IMG/VR virus record: IMGVR_UViG_2537561991_000021
DNA length: 44,504 nt
Direction: 5' to 3' (one strand)
Source: a virus
Lineage: Duplodnaviria > Heunggongvirae > Uroviricota > Caudoviricetes
Shown: positions 25,308 to 39,454 of the stretch, one piece after another
Layout: each line of letters begins with the position of its first letter
Position numbering within the stretch: position 1 is the first letter of the stretch
Notes under the pieces: generated by a model
What the model was told of the DNA's origin: nothing
What the model saw: the letters and a program-made list of their open reading frames with translations, nothing else
Databases searched by the model: none
Translations under genes and position numbers: made by a program

Positions 25308-25436
25308 AGCTCTGACCTCTACGTTTTGCTACGAAAAAATTTTCTGAGAACCACGTCTGTTTATCCGTGGGTGTGGATAACGCAGTTCCGATTCGCTTAT
25401 TACACGCTGTTATGTGCAAAAAATTCCTTGTTCGGC

Positions 25437-25608: not shown

Positions 25609-27781
25609 GTTGGGACACCGCCTCAAAAATTCGAGTCATTTTCCCCCCAATTCGCCTTTGGGCACGCTTATACCCGCAATTTTGCAAAACATTACTAATT
25701 CGCATTTCTTCGCGTTTTCCGATGCGGTCAGGATTTAGCCCAATCGCATCACGCAAAACATCACTTGCGCGTAAAAATTCGCAATTTCGCGGAAGTTCAT
25801 TAGTCATCAGGTCTGGCGTGTCGAGCCATTTCTCTACCGTTTCAAGCCAAGCATCCTTGATGGTGTACTGTTCATGGACACTCGCTGCCAGTTGTTCAGC
25901 CTCACGGAACTGGATACCCCCCAGACGCTGAAACACCTCACGAGCCTCAGCCCAAAGTAAAAGGAGATCTCTTTTTATCGCTTTCACGTCGACTTTCGAC
26001 ACTTCCACGGGGAGCCAGCGACGGTTACCAGTCTTGTCCGCAAGGAATTCGTCCTCATTGGTGGTACCAACGAACACCAGGCGACGAGGAAACTGGGTGG
26101 CGAACTCCCGGTATTTCGGGATCCAGTTTTCGTGAGTACGCGTCACAAACGCTTTGATTGACTCCAGCTCTTTGGTATTAAGTCCGCGCAGTTCACCAAT
26201 CTCTGCCACCAGCCGACCACGCATTTTTCGAGCGAGATCATCGTCTTTTTCGGCAAAAGAGATTTCAGTAAAAAACGCAGGATCAGGGCTCAGTGCCTCC
26301 ACTCCGGAAGACTTACCGCAGCCCTGCGGACCAACGAGGATCGGCACCATATCCGCTTTGATGCCTGGCTCCAGTACTCGCCCCGCCAACGCGGTCCACA
26401 TGTACATAGACACCGCACGGGTATAAGGCGTGTCGGCTGTACCGAAGTGCGTATGGTAGAAACATTCGATGCGCGGCACGCCATCCCACTCCAGCCCGTT
26501 CAGCCAGGTAATCGCTGAATCGAATGGTTGTTCATCGGCTGCAAGTAACACCACATCGCGAATAAGTTCACGACCAACAGGTTTAAATCCCCGCTTTTCC
26601 ATCGTGATGCGCAGGCGCGCATAATCCGCATCGGTGAATGCTCGCCATTGTCCGGATCCTGCAGAGGCAAACATGATTTCGTCGCGGAACTGGTCAAAGC
26701 GAATATCGATGTCCACAAAATCAGGGCGTACTACTGCTTTGGCTGCGTTGCTGATGGTTGCCTCGATACGCCCCCATTTATCACGCTCGAAAGCAGGCAG
26801 CGGTAAAGGTTCCGCCACTTCGGTGCTGGTCAGATCTTCGAAATCGTCGTTGCGGATCCCGATGGCATTAAGGAAATCTCCGTCATCACGATGCGCACAA
26901 CTGGCATGCAGGCATTTAAAATGCCCCTGCTCAAAGCCCGCGGTTCCCGCAGGAAAATAAGCTGTGCTTGTTGGATCGCCCCCGCTACTGTGGCCGTCTT
27001 CAAACGGACAGCGGATATATCGTTCACCATTTGCGCCATCCAGCAGCGTCCAGCCATTGGCATCAAGATATTCAGCTGTATCATCCGTCGCGCCGGGCGT
27101 GAATGCTGATCGGTCGCGCATCTTCGTGTTGCCCGCTTCGGTGGTTACCGACACAGGGAGTTGTTCAGCCAGGCGCTGCCACAGCGTTTCAAGCTGCTCA
27201 CCAGTAATAGCCGGAGGTTCATCCGGCAAACCACCGTCCCATTCAATACGCGCGCCGCTGCTGTGCGTACCACAGGCAACGAACTGCTGCCCGTTCGCCA
27301 GCAACTCGATAATGCCCATATCCCCCGCCAGGCGATGGATACGCTTACAGAAATCACCATCAACGGCCAGCAGATACAGACACTTATTACTGTTTGCTCG
27401 CCAGCGTCGCGGCGGCAACTCCCCCAGAAGTTGCACAAGCGTTTTGCGAATATCTGCCTGAATGTCTTCATCTTCGCTATCGCAGTCCAGCGCCAGCCAG
27501 CCATGGCCTGTACGCACGCAGATGCCATAATCCGGTTCATTCGACCAGCGGGCAAAATCATGCTCAGTAACAACATACCCGGTCCATTGAGCAATACCGG
27601 TGACCTGGCGGTCCCGGTTATAGCGACTTGGCGTCTTACCCAGCGCTTTCAGTTTACTATCAGGGGATATGGTCGCACCGGGGTTACATACAACTGGGAG
27701 AAGATGATCAGTTCTCCCCAATACCAGGTCGAAATGAAACCACTCATCAGGCGTAGCTCCCCATGGTTTGCTATCGGACAT
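25589..27781 (-). CDS. DNA primase / replication initiator with C-terminal P-loop NTPase
   Basis: 730 aa; Walker A GPQGCGKSS; Cys/His cluster CPFEDGH...CLHASCAH; tightly coupled to the cro-like gene (TAACCCATG). Confidence 0.7.
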   Translation of the reverse strand: MSDSKPWGATPDEWFHFDLVLGRTDHLLPVVCNPGATISPDSKLKALGKTPSRYNRDRQVTGIAQWTGYVVTEHDFARWSNEPDYGICVRTGHGWLALDCDSEDEDIQADIRKTLVQLLGELPPRRWRANSNKCLYLLAVDGDFCKRIHRLAGDMGIIELLANGQQFVACGTHSSGARIEWDGGLPDEPPAITGEQLETLWQRLAEQLPVSVTTEAGNTKMRDRSAFTPGATDDTAEYLDANGWTLLDGANGERYIRCPFEDGHSSGGDPTSTAYFPAGTAGFEQGHFKCLHASCAHRDDGDFLNAIGIRNDDFEDLTSTEVAEPLPLPAFERDKWGRIEATISNAAKAVVRPDFVDIDIRFDQFRDEIMFASAGSGQWRAFTDADYARLRITMEKRGFKPVGRELIRDVVLLAADEQPFDSAITWLNGLEWDGVPRIECFYHTHFGTADTPYTRAVSMYMWTALAGRVLEPGIKADMVPILVGPQGCGKSSGVEALSPDPAFFTEISFAEKDDDLARKMRGRLVAEIGELRGLNTKELESIKAFVTRTHENWIPKYREFATQFPRRLVFVGTTNEDEFLADKTGNRRWLPVEVSKVDVKAIKRDLLLLWAEAREVFQRLGGIQFREAEQLAASVHEQYTIKDAWLETVEKWLDTPDLMTNELPRNCEFLRASDVLRDAIGLNPDRIGKREEMRISNVLQNCGYKRAQRRIGGKMTRIFEAVSQPVPASK

Positions 27782-27784
27782 GGG

Positions 27785-27997
27785 TTAAGCCTTTTTATCG
27801 TTTTGTGAGCCATACAACAGCCAATTAGGGTCGCAATCCAATGCTATAGACATTTCAAGAAGATAACGTGGCCGAGCAATAACACCACTTTCAATTCTGT
27901 TTATTGCCTGCTGGCTCACTCCTGTGAGCTCAGCCAACGTAACTTGCGTCATTTTGAGTTCTTTACGTCGTTCTTTTACTCGGGTCGCTAAGGTCAT
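27785..27997 (-). CDS. Cro-like HTH (XRE family) regulator
   Basis: 70 aa from the ATG at 27997 with a GAGGTG RBS; HTH region QVTLAELTGVSQQAINRIESG; divergent from the CI-like gene. Confidence 0.75.
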   Translation of the reverse strand: MTLATRVKERRKELKMTQVTLAELTGVSQQAINRIESGVIARPRYLLEMSIALDCDPNWLLYGSQNDKKA

Positions 27998-28117
27998 TGC
28001 TTTCACCTCATACAATTTTAGTGGTATTTAGCAACAACAAATGAGGTTTGTCAAATACAACAAAAATTGTTTTTAATGTGGGTATACACATTAATACAAC
28101 CCAGAAGGACTAATCCC
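27998..28117. promoter_or_regulatory. divergent promoter/operator region of the immunity switch
   Basis: Inverted repeats ACAAA-N5-TTTGT (28037..28051) and ATACAA-N6-TTGTTT (28055..28072); TTGACA on the minus strand and TTGTCA-N18-TTTAAT on the plus strand. Confidence 0.55.
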
Positions 28118-28741
28118 ATGTCTCTCGCAGCCCGTTTTAAAGCACGTCGTTTGGAATTAGGAATGACTCAAGTGGAAGTAGCGAATTCTGCAGGGGTTAG
28201 CCAACAATCCATAGAATCCATCGAAAGTGGACGAACCAGAAAGCCACGCAATCTTCTGGATCTGGCTAAGGCCTTGAAATGTAGCCCAGACTGGCTACTG
28301 AACGGTAAAAATATTATGCCTCTCGCGGAGATAAGTACCAGACGCATACCTATATTAAGTTACGTTCAGGCAGGAGAGCTTACAGAAGCAAGAGACATAA
28401 CAGATCTGACAGGGGAATTTGAATATATTTTGGCAGACTCTGACATTCCAGAAACATGCTTCGCATTACGTATTGATGGCGACAGCATGCAACCAGAGTT
28501 TAAAGAAGGAGACATTGTTATCATCGATCCTGATCTATGTCCTGCACCAGGGGAGTTTGTTGTCGCCAAAAACGACGGTCACGAAGCTACATTTAAAAAA
28601 TACCGTCCATTAGGAATCGGCATCGACGACTTTGAATTAATCCCCCTAAATCCTGATTACCCTATTTTTCGTAGTGCAGATATGAACTTACAGATCATAG
28701 GTGTAATGATCGAACACCGTATTTACCGCCGTAAACGTTAG
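28118..28741 (+). CDS. CI-like repressor (HTH-XRE plus LexA-type S24 peptidase domain)
   Basis: N-terminal HTH (MTQVEVANSAGVSQQSIESIESG) and C-terminal autoprotease signature (GDSM...K). ATG at 28118 with an AGAAGGA RBS; the ORF track extends to 28067. Confidence 0.8.
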   Translation: MSLAARFKARRLELGMTQVEVANSAGVSQQSIESIESGRTRKPRNLLDLAKALKCSPDWLLNGKNIMPLAEISTRRIPILSYVQAGELTEARDITDLTGEFEYILADSDIPETCFALRIDGDSMQPEFKEGDIVIIDPDLCPAPGEFVVAKNDGHEATFKKYRPLGIGIDDFELIPLNPDYPIFRSADMNLQIIGVMIEHRIYRRKR

Positions 28742-28757
28742 TATTCCCACCGTAAAT

Positions 28758-28777
28758 ATCGGGAGGCGTAACAGCCT
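28758..28777 (+). terminator. hairpin after the CI-like gene (possible terminator)
   Basis: GGGAGGC-GTAACA-GCCTCCC stem-loop 17 nt after the stop; weak T-tract. Confidence 0.4.
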
Positions 28778-28867
28778 CCCTTACCCCATTTGTAAAGTCT
28801 TACAAATTAAATTCACTTAAATATCAATAAAGTAGTATTCACACCCCACAAAATACCACGTTTGCGG

Positions 28868-28896
28868 TTTACACAATACAACTCAAATTGTATCTT
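28868..28896 (+). promoter_or_regulatory. candidate early promoter with overlapping operator palindrome
   Basis: TTTACA-N17-TATCTT; the spacer carries the perfect inverted repeat ATACAA-CTCAAA-TTGTAT (28876..28893), related to the motifs in the cI/cro region. Confidence 0.5.
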
Positions 28897-29063
28897 TAGC
28901 CACAAGTCGAACGGCGCGACTCTAAACCATGCGTCGGGACCGTGGCGGGACAGGATGTCGGCAATACGGGTCAGTAAGTTCCCTTTGGGGTGCGGCGAAG
29001 CACTGCCTACTGATACAAGTCGAAGCCGCCGAACCACCAAAGTGAACTGAATGAGGAAACGGC

Positions 29064-29258
29064 GTGAAAACATATAAACCGCTCAAAGGTGAATGCCCTG
29101 CTTGCCAAACACAGCTTCAGACACCAAAGCCAAAACGATACCAAATCAACGAATGTTATGAGCACTGCCCTGGATGTGGTGCTTTCCTGCATACCATTGC
29201 AACGCACTGGCGTGTCCGCTTCAACCTTGTGGTACCACGTACGCACAATACCAACTGA
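29064..29258 (+). CDS. small zinc-ribbon protein, first gene of the early operon
   Basis: 64 aa, GTG start after a GAGGAAA RBS; Cys pairs CPAC and CPGC. Confidence 0.5.
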   Translation: MKTYKPLKGECPACQTQLQTPKPKRYQINECYEHCPGCGAFLHTIATHWRVRFNLVVPRTHNTN

Positions 29259-29289
29259 ATCATCCATGTAATTGCTGTGTGTAGTCTTT

Positions 29290-29316
29290 GCCCGCCGCAA
29301 GTGACGGGCTTTTTTA
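29290..29316 (+). terminator. rho-independent terminator / attenuator after the first early gene
   Basis: GCCCG...CGGGC stem (extendable) followed by TTTTTT. Confidence 0.5.
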
Positions 29317-29520
29317 TGTCTGAAAGCGCACTCGCAACAGCGCGCTCCCCGATATGAAAAAAGGAATACAACCGATGAAACCTGAACACCTCTATCGACT
29401 GACGGGGCGCGATGTTCTCCGTTATCGCCGTAAAAACTTCGATTTGATGACCGGTCTGGCCGTTGCCACTGCGCTCGGTCTGATCATCACTTTCATTCTC
29501 CTTGTTGCGAGGACCACAGT

Positions 29521-31742: not shown

Positions 31743-32102
31743 ATGAAACTGAAGCTGAACAATGTTCGTCTGGCCTTCCCGTCTCTGTTTGAAGCTAAAA
31801 CTGTAAACGGCGAAGGCGATCCGCGTTTCTCCGCAGTATTTTTAATGTCTCCCAAACACCCACAACTGGAAGAAATCCGTAAAGCTATGAAGCAGGTAGC
31901 GAAGGAAAAATGGGGAGAGAAGTGGGAGCCCATTTATAACCAGCTGGAGAAAAAACTCAATCTGTGCCTGCATGATGGTGATGAAAAAGCAGAGTATGAA
32001 GGCTTCCCCGGTAATTTCTTCCTGAATGCTGCTAACAAAGCGCGCCCAGCTGTTCTTGATCGCGATCGTTCGCCACTTATTCAGGCTGACGGACGTCCCT
32101 AT
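31743..32102 (+). pseudogene. putative ssDNA-binding protein, 5' part (split by IS insertion)
   Basis: Reading frame runs into the IS end at 32103 (GTAAGCG); continues in frame at 35642. Confidence 0.6.
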
Positions 32103-32174
32103 GGTAAGCGTACAGCCTGAACCGTCTGGTCAGAATCTGACGAATTAGACAAAGTGGTGTCCACCAAATAAGTA

Positions 32175-32576
32175 GTGGGAACCAAAGTATCAGATATGCA
32201 GAAAAATGTGACTCCCGGCAGGCGAAAAGGCTGCCCTAATTATCCTCCCGAATTTAAACAGCAGCTCGTTGCTGCCTCCTGTGAACCCGGGATATCCATC
32301 TCAAAACTTGCTCTTGAAAATGGCATTAACGCCAATCTGTTGTTCAAATGGCGACAACAATGGCGCGAGGGAAAGCTGCTATTACCTTCTTCAGAGAGCC
32401 CCCAGCTACTTCCTGTGACTCTCGATGCAGCTGCCGAACAGCCAGAATCGCTCGCAGAGGACCCGGAAACCCTCAGTATCAGCTGTGAGGTAACGTTCCG
32501 GCACGGGACGCTCCGCTTCAATGGCAATGTCAGCGAAAAGCTCCTGACTCTGCTGATACAGGAACTGAAGCGATGA
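32175..32576 (+). CDS. IS66-family orfA (short form)
   Basis: 133 aa; GINANLLFKWRQQWREGKLL region shared with the longer orfA-like proteins. Confidence 0.75.
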   Translation: MGTKVSDMQKNVTPGRRKGCPNYPPEFKQQLVAASCEPGISISKLALENGINANLLFKWRQQWREGKLLLPSSESPQLLPVTLDAAAEQPESLAEDPETLSISCEVTFRHGTLRFNGNVSEKLLTLLIQELKR

Positions 32577-32920
32577 TCCCGTTACCTTCCGGGACCAAAA
32601 TTTGGCTGGTTGCCGGTATCACCGATATGAGAAATGGCTTCAACGGCCTGGCTGCGAAAGTACAAACGGCGCTGAAAGACGATCCCATGTCCGGCCATGT
32701 TTTCATTTTCCGGGGCCGCAGCGGCAGTCAGGTTAAACTGCTGTGGTCCACCGGTGACGGACTGTGCCTCCTGACCAAACGGCTGGAGCGTGGGCGCTTC
32801 GCCTGGCCGTCAGCCCGTGATGGCAAAGTGTTCCTTACGCAGGCGCAGCTGGCGATGCTGCTGGAAGGTATCGACTGGCGACAGCCTAAGCGGCTGCTGA
32901 CCTCCCTGACCATGCTGTAA
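32573..32920 (+). CDS. IS66 Orf2-like accessory protein (TnpB)
   Basis: 115 aa, clearly related to the orfB at 33672..34019. Confidence 0.8.
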   Translation: MIPLPSGTKIWLVAGITDMRNGFNGLAAKVQTALKDDPMSGHVFIFRGRSGSQVKLLWSTGDGLCLLTKRLERGRFAWPSARDGKVFLTQAQLAMLLEGIDWRQPKRLLTSLTML

Positions 32921-32994
32921 ATCTCTTTATCCTGGTTGTCAGTAACCGGCTCATTTAAACCGTCTGGTCTGTTTCCTCCGGCTCTACAAAAATA

Positions 32995-33672
32995 ATGTCC
33001 ATCATTTTTAATGGACACTATCGTATGAAACACCGGACCTGGATCACTGAAGCTTTACGTCTTCACTTTGAAGAACATTTACCCCGGGTTGTGGCCGGGC
33101 GTCGCCTGGGTGTACCAAAATCAACAGTTTGTAGTATGTTCGTGCGCTTTCGGAGAGCTGGCCTTTCGTGGCCTTTGCCCGCAGGCATGTCGGAGCAGGA
33201 ACTTGATGCCTGCCTTTACGGACAATTTTCCACGGTACCAGTCGTACGTCCTGAAAGCACCGTTATATCCGAAGCCCCCGTGGTAAAAAAACGTCCCCGG
33301 CGGCCCAACTTCCCTTATGAGTTTAAAATCGCCTTAGTGGAGCAGTCACTGCAGCCCGGAGCCTGTGTGGCGCAGATCGCCCGGGAAAACGGAATCAACG
33401 ATAACCTGCTCTTCAACTGGCGCCATCAATACCGGAAAGGTGGCCTGCTGCCTTCCGGAAAAAATATGCCGGCACTGCTTCCCGTGACGTTAACGCCGGA
33501 GCCGGATAATAAAATCCCGGCCCCCGCACAGGAACCAGAGCAGATAAATACACCGTCCGACAGTCTGTGTTGTGAGCTGGTTCTGCCGGCCGGAACTCTC
33601 AGGCTTAAAGGTAAACTGACGCCGGCGTTATTACAGACACTTATCCGCGAAATAAAAGGGAGCAGCCACTGA
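32995..33672 (+). CDS. IS66-family orfA-like protein with N-terminal HTH
   Basis: 225 aa, about 97% identical to 1387..2064. Confidence 0.8.
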   Translation: MSIIFNGHYRMKHRTWITEALRLHFEEHLPRVVAGRRLGVPKSTVCSMFVRFRRAGLSWPLPAGMSEQELDACLYGQFSTVPVVRPESTVISEAPVVKKRPRRPNFPYEFKIALVEQSLQPGACVAQIARENGINDNLLFNWRHQYRKGGLLPSGKNMPALLPVTLTPEPDNKIPAPAQEPEQINTPSDSLCCELVLPAGTLRLKGKLTPALLQTLIREIKGSSH

Positions 33673-34019
33673 TGATATCTCTCCCTGCAGGTTCGCGTAT
33701 CTGGCTGGTTGCAGGTATCACCGATATGCGAAATGGCTTTAACGGCCTGGCATCAAAAGTTCAGAACGTCCTGAAGGATGACCCGTTCTCCGGACACCTG
33801 TTCATCTTCCGCGGACGCCGGGGTGACCAGATAAAAGTGTTGTGGGCTGACAGTGACGGACTGTGCCTCTTCACCAAACGCCTGGAGCGGGGCCGCTTCG
33901 TCTGGCCAGTCACCCGTGACGGCAAGGTGCACCTTACTCCGGCTCAGTTATCCATGCTTCTTGAAGGTATCAACTGGAAGCACCCGAAACGAACGGAACG
34001 CGCTGGAATCCGCATATAA
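33672..34019 (+). CDS. IS66 Orf2-like accessory protein (TnpB)
   Basis: 115 aa, identical to 1040..1387. Confidence 0.85.
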   Translation: MISLPAGSRIWLVAGITDMRNGFNGLASKVQNVLKDDPFSGHLFIFRGRRGDQIKVLWADSDGLCLFTKRLERGRFVWPVTRDGKVHLTPAQLSMLLEGINWKHPKRTERAGIRI

Positions 34020-34038
34020 CCCGTTGTAAAGTGAGGAT

Positions 34039-35610
34039 ATGGACACCTCACTTGCTCATGAGAACGCCCGCCTGCGGGCACTGTTGCAGACGCAACAGGA
34101 CACCATCCGCCAGATGGCTGAATACAACCGCCTGCTCTCACAGCGGGTGGCGGCTTATGCTTCCGAAATCAACCGGCTGAAGGCGCTGGTTGCGAAACTG
34201 CAACGTATGCAGTTCGGTAAAAGCTCAGAAAAACTTCGTGCAAAAACCGAACGGCAGATACAGGAAGCACAGGAGCGAATCAGCGCACTTCAGGAAGAAA
34301 TGGCGGAAACGCTGGGTGAGCAATATGACCCGGTACTGCCATCCGCCCTGCGCCAGTCTTCAGCCCGTAAACCGTTACCGGCCTCACTTCCCCGTGAAAC
34401 CCGGGTTATCCGGCCGGAAGAGGAATGCTGTCCTGCCTGTGGTGGTGAACTCAGTTCTCTGGGATGTGATGTGTCAGAGCAACTGGAGCTTATCAGCAGC
34501 GCCTTTAAGGTTATCGAAACACAACGTCCGAAACAGGCCTGTTGCCGGTGCGACCATATCGTGCAGGCACCAGTACCTTCAAAACCCATTGCACGCAGTT
34601 ATGCCGGAGCGGGGCTTCTGGCCCATGTTGTCACCGGGAAATATGCAGACCATCTGCCGTTATACCGCCAGTCAGAAATATACCGTCGTCAGGGAGTGGA
34701 GCTGAGCCGTGCCACACTGGGGCGCTGGACAGGTGCTGTTGCTGAACTGCTGGAGCCGCTGTATGACGTCCTGCGCCAGTATGTGCTGATGCCCGGTAAA
34801 GTCCATGCTGATGATATCCCCGTCCCGGTCCAGGAGCCGGGCAGCGGTAAAACCCGGACAGCCCGGCTGTGGGTCTACGTCCGTGATGACCGTAACGCCG
34901 GTTCACAGATGCCCCCGGCGGTCTGGTTCGCGTACAGTCCGGACCGGAAAGGTATCCATCCACAAAATCACCTGGCCGGTTACAGCGGTGTGCTTCAGGC
35001 CGATGCTTACGGTGGTTACCGGGCGTTATACGAATCCGGCAGAATAACGGAAGTCGCGTGTATGGCTCATGCCCGGAGAAAAATCCACGATGTGCATGCA
35101 AGAGCGCCCACCTACATCACCACGGAAGCCCTGCAGCGTATCGGTGAACTGTATGCCATCGAGGCAGAGGTCCGGGGCTGTTCAGCAGAACAGCGTCTGG
35201 CGGCAAGAAAAGCCAGAGCCGCGCCACTGATGCAGTCACTGTATGACTGGATACAGCAACAGATGAAAACACTGTCGCGTCACTCAGATACGGCAAAAGC
35301 GTTCGCATACCTGCTGAAACAGTGGGATGCACTGAACGTGTACTGCAGTAATGGCTGGGTGGAAATCGACAACAACATCGCAGAGAACGCCTTACGGGGA
35401 GTGGCCGTAGGCCGGAAAAACTGGATGTTCGCGGGTTCCGACAGCGGTGGTGAACATGCGGCGGTGTTGTACTCGCTGATCGGCACATGCCGTCTGAACA
35501 ATGTGGAGCCAGAAAAGTGGCTGCGTTACGTCATTGAACATATCCAGGACTGGCCGGCAAACCGGGTACGCGATCTGTTGCCCTGGAAAGTTGATCTGAG
35601 CTCTCAGTAA
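34039..35610 (+). CDS. IS66-family transposase TnpC
   Basis: 523 aa with leucine-zipper-like N-terminus and CPACGG...CxxC zinc motif; right inverted repeat 30 bp downstream. Confidence 0.85.
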
Positions 35611-35641
35611 ATATCAATACGGTTCTGACGAGTCGCTTACT

Positions 35642-38692: not shown

Positions 38693-39454
38693 ATGCAGGA
38701 ACTAACTGAAATGCCGATCACCTATCCATACCCGAGAGAAACTTTTCCTGACTTTTTGAGGGAGTGTGGGTTCACCAATTTTTCCCACGAACAGCGTGAG
38801 ACTTGTGACTGCTATCGTTTAACGAATGGCGTAATTGTTAACCTTTACACCACCCGGACCATTCAGTTTCAAGGTAACCCTCAAGAACGTCCCAATGTTG
38901 AAACTGCAATAATGACCCATTTAGGAACGCCGCCCACGGCAACACCACTAGCCGTAGAACAGCCATCTGAGCTCCCCAAAAAGATATTCATTGTTCACGG
39001 CCATGACCATACTGCAAAGGAGCAACTTGAGCTAATCCTTCATAAACTTGGATTACCAGACCATTTCATTTTGCAGAATACGGGAGGGACTGGACTCACC
39101 ATTATTGAAGAGCTTGAACGTGAAATTGGGCAAGGACAAACTGCTACCCGTTTCGGGATTGTTCTTTTGACACCTGATGATATGGGATACTCAAAGCGCG
39201 CCGGTGAAGCAGAAATCCAACCCCGCGCAAGACAGAACGTTGTACTCGAGATGGGTATGCTTCTTTCGTCCTTAGGGCGCAGCAATGTAGCAATCCTTCA
39301 GAAACAGCACCTAGAACAGCCTTCTGATGCTAACGGGATTTTGTATCTGAATTTCAACGACCATGTACGTGAAACAGTTCCTCGTCTAGTGCAACGGTTA
39401 CAAAATTCTGGTTTCGAATTTACACAAGCTCAAATAGCTAACGCTTCCTCGTAA
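38693..39454 (+). CDS. TIR-like domain protein (predicted nucleotide-binding TIR-like fold) with a unique N-terminal domain
   Basis: 253 aa; C-terminal region KIFIVHGHDH...GIVLLTPDDMG...ARQNVVLEMGMLLSSLGRSNVAILQ...PSDANGILYL matches the recalled consensus of the TIR-like nucleotide-binding family. Lower GC than neighbours; own RBS and terminator. Confidence 0.6.
   Translation: MQELTEMPITYPYPRETFPDFLRECGFTNFSHEQRETCDCYRLTNGVIVNLYTTRTIQFQGNPQERPNVETAIMTHLGTPPTATPLAVEQPSELPKKIFIVHGHDHTAKEQLELILHKLGLPDHFILQNTGGTGLTIIEELEREIGQGQTATRFGIVLLTPDDMGYSKRAGEAEIQPRARQNVVLEMGMLLSSLGRSNVAILQKQHLEQPSDANGILYLNFNDHVRETVPRLVQRLQNSGFEFTQAQIANASS

Follow-up and report, generated by a model that had tools for sequence, protein, structure and literature searches.

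In coliphage 434, our reference for annotated operators and promoters (record OL657226.1), the genes cro and cI (the latter encoding an HTH plus an S24 domain) are divergent and are controlled from 14-bp operators of the type ACAA-N6-TTGT, with both -35 hexamers of the cro-cI spacer lying in the 9-mer TTGTCAAAT; past cI come OL2, a 9-bp spacer (TTACAnnAT), OL1 and then the -10 of a promoter that reads in the direction of cI. All of this, including the geometry of O_R, recurs in the locus described here. Phage lambda is organized likewise: its cI and cro diverge from a tripartite O_R, O_L/P_L lies past cI and points the same way, and the repressor is an S24 protein that cleaves itself. Its operators, however, are 17 bp long and of other sequence, the fold of its Cro is different, and the proteins of our locus are much closer to those of 434. 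The closest CI proteins among deposited phages (57-60% identity) belong to the lambdoid Enterobacter phage CobraSix, Klebsiella phage ST16-OXA48phi5.2 and Yersinia phage vB_YenM_29.18. The geometry of their O_R and O_L is identical to that of our locus, while their recognition helix reads QQSW instead of QQSI, every O_R and O_L position is occupied by ACAG-N6-CTGT, and the phages carry cII and O/P-type replication genes. The first-pass annotation of our locus had proposed that one repressor acts at both early promoters, as in lambda; homology with 434, both in the proteins and in the layout of the DNA, supports such a control, but makes 434, not lambda, the closest model.

The locus lies in a 44.5-kb stretch of DNA, which was analysed as a whole and is called the window below. 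The window is an E. coli prophage, integrated beside yfhL and 99.98-100% identical to one in strain FDAARGOS_1059. We conclude that the locus is very probably the immunity (lysis/lysogeny) cassette of this prophage, homologous to the immunity region of phage 434, with functional steps that are predicted by homology. The region is real but ordinary: it belongs to the very well-known 434-type family, found here in a non-lambdoid prophage. Gene pair, operator sequences and operator spacing are all colinear with 434, as is the way in which the operators overlap promoter hexamers. The two genes are as follows.

27785-27997, minus strand: cro-like gene, 70 aa, ATG at 27997, single HTH_3 domain
28118-28741, plus strand: cI-like repressor gene, 207 aa, HTH_3 plus Peptidase_S24 (Pfam)

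The reading frames of this divergent pair had been placed exactly in the first-pass annotation, including the gap between them (27998-28117, exactly 120 bp), and Pfam and the homology with 434 bore out their identity. The ORF map and Pfam domains of the window and the PGAP annotation of an identical locus all gave a divergent HTH plus S24 repressor and a single-domain HTH Cro; in public genomes, cI carries no more than the label 'LexA family protein' and cro 'helix-turn-helix domain-containing protein'.

The HTH_3 domain of the 70-aa product was recognized by Pfam with an E value of 1.7e-14, and the top solved-structure match of the protein was phage 434 Cro (3CRO/2CRO/1ZUG; E 1.9e-19), to which it is 56% identical. 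Its recognition helix opens with Gln-Gln and reads QQAINR in the alignment. The N-terminal domain of the CI-like protein had the 434 repressor as its top solved-structure match (1PER/2OR1/1RPE; E 5.9e-16), and the protein also matched lambda repressor (3BDN; E 5.8e-15). The identity with 434 cI was 52% in the N-terminal domain, 35% in the C-terminal domain and 40% over the whole protein. R10, Q17, Q28, Q29, S30, I31, E32 and R43 were retained, while Q33 was replaced by Ser, and the recognition helix reads QQSIES. We take the DNA-contact residues of the 434 repressor (base and backbone) to include Arg10, Gln17, Gln28, Gln29, Ser30, Gln33 and Arg43; with this assumption, the alignment indicates that all of them are present in the CI-like repressor except Gln33, which is Ser.

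The cleavage and catalytic motifs also matched those of 434 cI: Ala85-Gly86 in VQAG, Ser123 in GDSM and the Lys of ATFKK. From these residues, RecA-dependent cleavage of CI is plausible. Since some relatives (L003) encode KilAC antirepressor-like proteins, we considered that induction might depend on an antirepressor or another signal rather than on RecA-stimulated self-cleavage. We judge this quite improbable, because the S24 domain is complete, its Ala-Gly site and its Ser and Lys motifs are shared with 434 cI and all relatives, and no antirepressor gene was seen beside the cassette.

Comparison of the window with the 434 record, with the cro start codon as the common origin, placed the following elements in the spacer between cro and cI.

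28012-28025, no strand: OR1, ACAATTTTAGTGGT, differing from ACAA-N6-TTGT at one base; directly adjacent to the -10 of P_R
28031-28026, minus strand: putative P_R -10 (cro promoter), CTAAAT, separated by a 17-nt gap from its -35; placed by positional homology to the annotated 434 pR -10
28034-28047, no strand: OR2, ACAACAAATGAGGT, weak, with the right half-site off consensus
28048-28056, no strand: -35 spacer TTGTCAAAT, holding the overlapping P_RM -35 TTGTCA (28048-28053, plus strand) and P_R -35 TTGACA (28054-28049, minus strand)
28057-28070, no strand: OR3, ACAACAAAAATTGT, perfect consensus, within the P_RM spacer
28071-28077, plus strand: putative P_RM -10, TTTTAA or TTTAAT; placed by positional homology to the annotated 434 pRM -10

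The resulting 14-8-14-9-14 bp layout of O_R was common to the window, 434 and three relatives, namely a diverged E. coli homologue (L006; 79% DNA identity, CI 93% identical), a Sodalis locus (L015; 78% amino-acid identity) and an Acerihabitans locus (L022; 71%). OR1 (ACAAACTTTCTTGT in 434) and its annotated 434 counterpart lie equally far from the cro start and are each followed by an 8-bp gap; OR1 of the window was unchanged in L006, and a site was found in the matching place in the Sodalis and Acerihabitans loci. OR2 (ACAATGTATCTTGT in 434) lies 8 bp past OR1 and 9 bp ahead of OR3, like its counterpart in 434, and 6 of its 8 core bases match; the same slot is occupied by ACAGCTAATCATGT in L006, by ACTTGAATTATTGT in the Sodalis locus and by ACAGAATAATGTGT in the Acerihabitans locus. 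The 9-mer that follows is shared letter for letter with 434, whose record annotates both -35 signals in it, and was kept in more than 15 related loci. OR3 (ACAGTTTTTCTTGT in 434) was unchanged in L006 and reads ACAACTAAAATTGT in the other two, while the TTTAAT version of the P_RM -10 was kept in L006 and in the Sodalis locus. A simple promoter scanner made no call for P_R or P_RM. An ATACAA half-site in the cI leader (28094-28099) was also considered as an operator, but it was not conserved in L006 and was rejected. Both inverted repeats initially reported in the spacer are thus real (OR1 and OR3), but there are three operators, the degenerate OR2 having been overlooked.

On the other side of cI, we found the following elements.

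28761-28780, plus strand: GC-rich hairpin after cI, GGGAGGC-N6-GCCTCCC
28823-28836, no strand: OL3 position, ATCAATAAAGTAGT, degenerate; matched to the annotated 434 OL3 by a five-way alignment
28855-28868, no strand: OL2, ACCACGTTTGCGGT, weak; starts 23 bp upstream of OL1, like in 434
28868-28896, plus strand: P_L-like promoter, TTTACA-N17-TATCTT, scanner match
28878-28891, no strand: OL1, ACAACTCAAATTGT, perfect, overlapping the P_L -10

The hairpin had a folding energy of -16.1 kcal/mol (z = -3.6, no shuffle folding equally well). It is likely the end of the P_RM transcript, termination being predicted despite a weak T-run. A different hairpin was found in this position in L006 and in L007, a heteroimmune locus of the same phage type. 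The positions of OL1, OL2 and OL3 all align with OL1-3 and pL of 434. OL1 reads ACAATCTTCCTTGT in 434 and is followed there by AATTTT, versus ATCTTT in the window; it was unchanged in L006 despite the divergence of its flanks. OL2 reads ACAATATTTATTGT in 434, and the spacer that separates it from OL1 is TTACAACAT in 434 versus TTACACAAT in the window. At the OL2 position, a perfect palindrome, ACCACATTTGTGGT, was present in L006 and L008, ACCTCTTTTATTGT in the Sodalis locus and ACTAATTTTATTGT in the Acerihabitans locus. Binding of the repressor to OL3 is doubtful, judging from its degenerate sequence. A conserved block at 28802-28814 was considered as an IHF site or a promoter, with support for neither.

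The P_L-like promoter lies 135 bp past the cI stop codon and was the sole sigma-70-like match of the scanner within 27700-29200. GTTTACA and the position of the -10 were kept in 434 (where pL is annotated), in L006 and in the Sodalis and Acerihabitans loci. The third, perfect repeat that the first-pass annotation had seen overlapping this promoter therefore exists and corresponds to OL1, but the sites at 28855-28868 and 28823-28836 had escaped notice. The description of the promoter as divergent has to be corrected, since it is co-oriented with cI, exactly like P_L of lambda and 434.

We determined how often such sites occur in the window. A search for ATACAA-N6-TTGTAT with at most two mismatches returned three sites, at 28010-28027 (1 mismatch), 28055-28072 (1 mismatch) and 28876-28893 (perfect), a count that is not significant alone, as 19 of 100 shuffles reached at least 3. 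The perfect 14-mer ACAA-N6-TTGT was present only twice (28057-28070 and 28878-28891), versus 0.65 expected from composition, and both copies fell within the 442 bp of non-coding DNA that flank cI, for which the chance is about 1e-4. Thus, it is the placement beside cI, and not the count, that carries weight. One-mismatch versions of the 14-mer elsewhere (19 in all, e.g. at 25418 and 44092) were rejected as operators, their number being about that predicted by chance. Taken alone, the 18-bp match count would allow the inverted repeats to be chance features of AT-rich promoter DNA, with the regulators binding elsewhere. This is extremely improbable, because all the sites in the immunity region are at positions homologous to annotated 434 operators and because they are kept across genera, varying together with the recognition helix. 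We consider them as putative operators of the 434 type.

Further evidence for this came from the relatives. The Sodalis and Acerihabitans loci, which have the same recognition helix as the window, keep ACAA-type sites in their O_R as well as the order OL2, 9-bp spacer, OL1 and -10. The heteroimmune L007 has a different cro and a different cI, and the repeats in both its O_R and its O_L are CTTAACT/AGTTAAG. In L007 and in other E. coli genomes of different immunity, about 98% identity with the window was regained exactly from 28900, 3 bases ahead of where the 434 annotation would put the P_L start. Operators thus vary with the repressor, and exchange involves the whole cassette as one unit ending at the P_L start.

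The locus also differs from that of 434 in several respects. The site with the best consensus is OR3 and not OR1, the latter having an off-consensus half-site (ACCA/TGGT), with OR2, OL2 and OL3 degenerate as well, so that the sites may be filled in another order than in 434. At position 5 of the half-sites, the window mostly has C or T, compared with G, A or T in 434, and the repressor carries Ser at residue 33. In the window, cI is not followed by hex, nor cro by cII, nor P_L by N, nutL or boxA, and the lambdoid early circuit (cII past cro; N and a boxA/boxB nut site past P_L) was not found at this locus. The cassette is furthermore set in a non-lambdoid backbone, with a VapE primase, PolA, DUF2800/DUF2815 and myovirus-type tail genes. 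It would thus work like imm434, but the early circuitry of the phage is not lambdoid. As its operators and contact residues match those of 434, cross-immunity is conceivable: judging from these sequences, the prophage might be cross-immune with coliphage 434 or lambda imm434 despite the unrelated backbone.

The genes on the two sides of the cassette were as the first-pass annotation had described them, with the primase on the cro side and the replisome genes on the cI side. The minus strand carries cro, a gene for a 730-aa VapE-type primase/helicase that begins within 4 nt of cro, a Q-like antiterminator gene, lysis genes and myovirus-like structural genes. The plus strand carries, from about 630 nt past cI, a 49-aa gene, a 300-aa gene and genes for a DUF2800 nuclease, a DUF2815/Enc34 ssDNA-binding protein, PolA, a helicase and an integrase. 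Escherichia phage vB_EcoM-606R2, deposited as a phage genome, has the same replication module (PolA 98% identical), and Yersinia YeP4, Bordetella BPP-1 and APSE phages have it in more distant form, which indicates that the backbone is not lambdoid.

A 3.5-kb insertion of the IS66 family (32104-35640, with an 8-bp duplication) splits the gene of the DUF2815/Enc34 ssDNA-binding protein (31743-32120, truncated) and is absent from the otherwise 99.98% identical L001. The lytic programme of the IS66-bearing copy may consequently be crippled or defective, and the switch could be a relic in this copy, CI serving only to silence the remnant and to give superinfection immunity. We consider this unlikely: cro, cI and the operators are 100% identical to those of the uninterrupted copy, the related vB_EcoM-606R2 was deposited as a phage, and the regulatory logic itself is unaffected by the insertion.

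By homology with 434, the immunity cassette would work as follows. In the lysogen, CI dimers are predicted to bind the 14-bp ACAA-N6-TTGT operators. Binding to OR1 and, cooperatively, to the weak OR2 would block P_R and keep cro, the VapE primase/helicase, Q, the lysis genes and the structural genes silent. Binding to OL1 and OL2 would block P_L and silence the leader, a zinc-ribbon ORF and an RprA-like module (both described below) and, as they are reached by read-through, also the genes for the DUF2800 nuclease, the ssDNA-binding protein, PolA and the helicase. CI at OR2 probably aids P_RM, and CI at OR3 would shut it off, providing autoregulation. After DNA damage, RecA would stimulate the self-cleavage of CI at Ala85-Gly86 through the Ser123/Lys dyad. 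Cro would then occupy the same sites, of which OR3 has the best consensus, so that P_RM would be turned off and the phage committed to lysis. A point against this account is that no cII-like gene to establish lysogeny was found after cro.

Between P_L and the replication genes, three further elements were found.

28900-29063, plus strand: P_L leader, about 160 nt, with its 5' end at the junction of the exchangeable immunity cassette; P_L start predicted near 28903
29064-29258, plus strand: unannotated, putative coding 64-aa ORF with two CxxC pairs, a GTG start and a GAGGA ribosome-binding site; first ORF past P_L
29255-29315, plus strand: RprA-like 3' module, comprising 24 nt identical to processed RprA, then a hairpin (GCCCG..CGGGC) and T6

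The leader was considered as a structured RNA, but the segment 28900-29066 folded no better than shuffles (z = -0.36). A search for boxA/nut elements found no boxA-like site in 28897-29320; the P_L leader of the diverged homologue L006 carries CGCTCTTTAACAA. The 64-aa ORF gave only sub-threshold zinc-ribbon matches in Pfam and no match in a PHROG search. Its slot is occupied by different ORFs in L006 and L008, and its stop codon sits in the conserved CTGAATC that opens the RprA-like module.

These elements bear on the earlier placement of the promoter directly at the head of the replisome operon, which does not hold: about 480 nt, comprising the leader, the 64-aa ORF and the RprA-like hairpin with its T6, separate it from the first conserved gene. 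The hairpin and T6 at 29290-29315, lying between P_L and the replisome genes, count against a simple model in which P_L drives the replisome. P_L might instead mainly drive a transcript of about 415 nt that ends at 29290-29315, in which case it would serve a small RNA or peptide 'moron' under repressor control and not the replisome operon. The position of the RprA-type terminator module between P_L and the next genes speaks for this, as do the absence of a boxA-like site from the leader and the fact that the module is invariant in five variants while the slot between P_L and the module is variable. However, no other sigma-70-like promoter was found between 29317 and the starts of the 49-aa and 300-aa genes, which would then need read-through from P_L; the terminator may be leaky, having a clean stem of only 5 bp and, for the 47-nt module, a folding energy of -11.5 kcal/mol versus -14.9 kcal/mol for host RprA; and the first P_L terminator is also read through in lambda and 434. 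We therefore hold the short transcript to be the somewhat less probable reading, although it is compatible with the main explanation. As the stretch from the RprA-like terminator to the next genes yielded no sigma-70-like promoter, the replisome genes under the 434-type control proposed here probably need read-through of this rather weak terminator.

The RprA-like element is the most unusual feature of the region. Rfam at gathering thresholds returned nothing for the whole window. Below the threshold, the module matched RF00034 (RprA) with 48.2 bits (E 2e-5), model positions ~58-108 aligning well, but this falls short of the gathering score of 70 needed for membership under the full model. The last 47 nt of RprA correspond to its processed form (PMC9262595). 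Positions 29270-29293 were identical, 24 nt out of 24, to the first 24 nt of these last 47 nt in host RprA (the host rprA sequence was verified). As in host RprA, the identical stretch is followed by a terminator hairpin and a U-run of the same fold, and the module forms the same two hairpins as the last 47 nt of RprA, with the energies mentioned above. In contrast, the 5' two-thirds of RprA are not conserved in the module; these include nt 30-70, a region reported to pair with narP mRNA (PMC9262595). The module also differs from RprA in its setting, a phage-promoter transcript in which it forms part of the 3' UTR of a small ORF.

The RprA-like core was invariant across five prophage variants with differing upstream ORFs, and prophages of unlike immunity share it. 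The module was present in 179 of 5426 complete E. coli genomes, with 27 places on plasmids, and in one plasmid it again lay directly past the stop codon of a small ORF. A near-identity search of deposited phages returned no more than a 39-nt stretch, corresponding to the RprA-like core. Neither an RprA-like phage RNA nor phage vB_EcoM-606R2 turned up in searches of the literature.

The module may be a functional small RNA derived from a 3' UTR or an Hfq competitor, or it may be a mere borrowed terminator. Our tentative proposal, to which we give limited credence, is that the transcript from CI-controlled P_L has, at its 3' end, a mobile copy of the 47-nt processed form of RprA, gated by a 434-type switch; the possible cross-immunity towards coliphage 434 or lambda imm434 is a separate matter.

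For the phage family, the gain is first one of naming: a 434-type repressor and Cro, six operator positions and three promoters. The locus also illustrates cleanly how an imm434-type cassette, bounded by a junction at the P_L start, was transferred whole into a phage with BPP-1/APSE-like replication genes. If the module is released and bound by Hfq, induction or infection would put a mimic or a competitor of processed RprA into the Hfq network of the host. The RprA-like module, which phages and plasmids carry as a derivative of a core small RNA of enterobacteria, could matter more than the switch itself.

The predicted promoter P_L (28868-28896, plus strand), 3' of cI, is followed by a module resembling the 3' part of the host small RNA RprA. 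The elements of this region are:

28788-28814, inverted repeat ATTTGTAAAGTCTTACAAAT, overlapping the block ACAAATTAAATTC
28855-28868, OL2 position, with the sequence ACCACGTTTGCGGT
28900-29063, P_L leader, in which ACAAGTCGAA occurs twice, at 28902 and 29015
29064-29258, plus strand, unannotated 64-aa ORF with a GTG start, a GAGGA ribosome-binding site and two CxxC pairs
29255-29315, plus strand, RprA-like 3' module, also found in the related prophage loci L006, L007, L008, L009 and L044

In the last of these, 24 nucleotides (29270-93) agreed at every position with the beginning of RprA in its processed 47-nt form, and were followed by a hairpin and then T6. Against Rfam RF00034 the module scored 48.2 bits, short of the gathering score (70). 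Five prophage variants carried it unchanged, and the ORFs upstream of it differed between them. It was present in 179 of 5426 complete E. coli genomes and was plasmid-borne at 27 places; in one plasmid it again came after the stop codon of a short ORF. A literature search disclosed no paper describing this module.

The 64-aa ORF is the first one downstream of the P_L-like promoter, and a PHROG search with it gave no match. Because unrelated ORFs occupy the same slot in L006 (a diverged E. coli homologue) and L008, this position behaves like an exchangeable 'moron' slot. The P_L leader shares 98% identity with heteroimmune relatives and showed no significant fold. No boxA was found in it, in contrast to L006, which has the boxA-like CGCTCTTTAACAA at the equivalent place.

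At OL2, L006 and L008 have the perfect palindrome ACCACATTTGTGGT. The window's site departs from it in two places, and may be a weakened operator in the window's lineage. The block ACAAATTAAATTC is kept upstream of OL3 in L006, Sodalis (L015) and Acerihabitans (L022). Phage 434 also has a recognisable version of this block upstream of OL3, where the block bears no annotation.

Two further features lie outside this region:

38693-39454, plus strand, TIR-domain protein gene (PGAP annotation of an identical locus)
32104-35640, IS66-family element with three transposase genes and an 8-bp target duplication

The TIR-domain gene, located inside the prophage and flanked by PolA and by VRR-NUC and helicase genes, is a possible prophage-borne defence gene. 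The IS66-family element interrupts the gene for a DUF2815/Enc34 ssDNA-binding protein. Since it is absent from the prophage of strain FDAARGOS_1059, otherwise 99.98% identical, the window copy of the prophage may be replication-defective.
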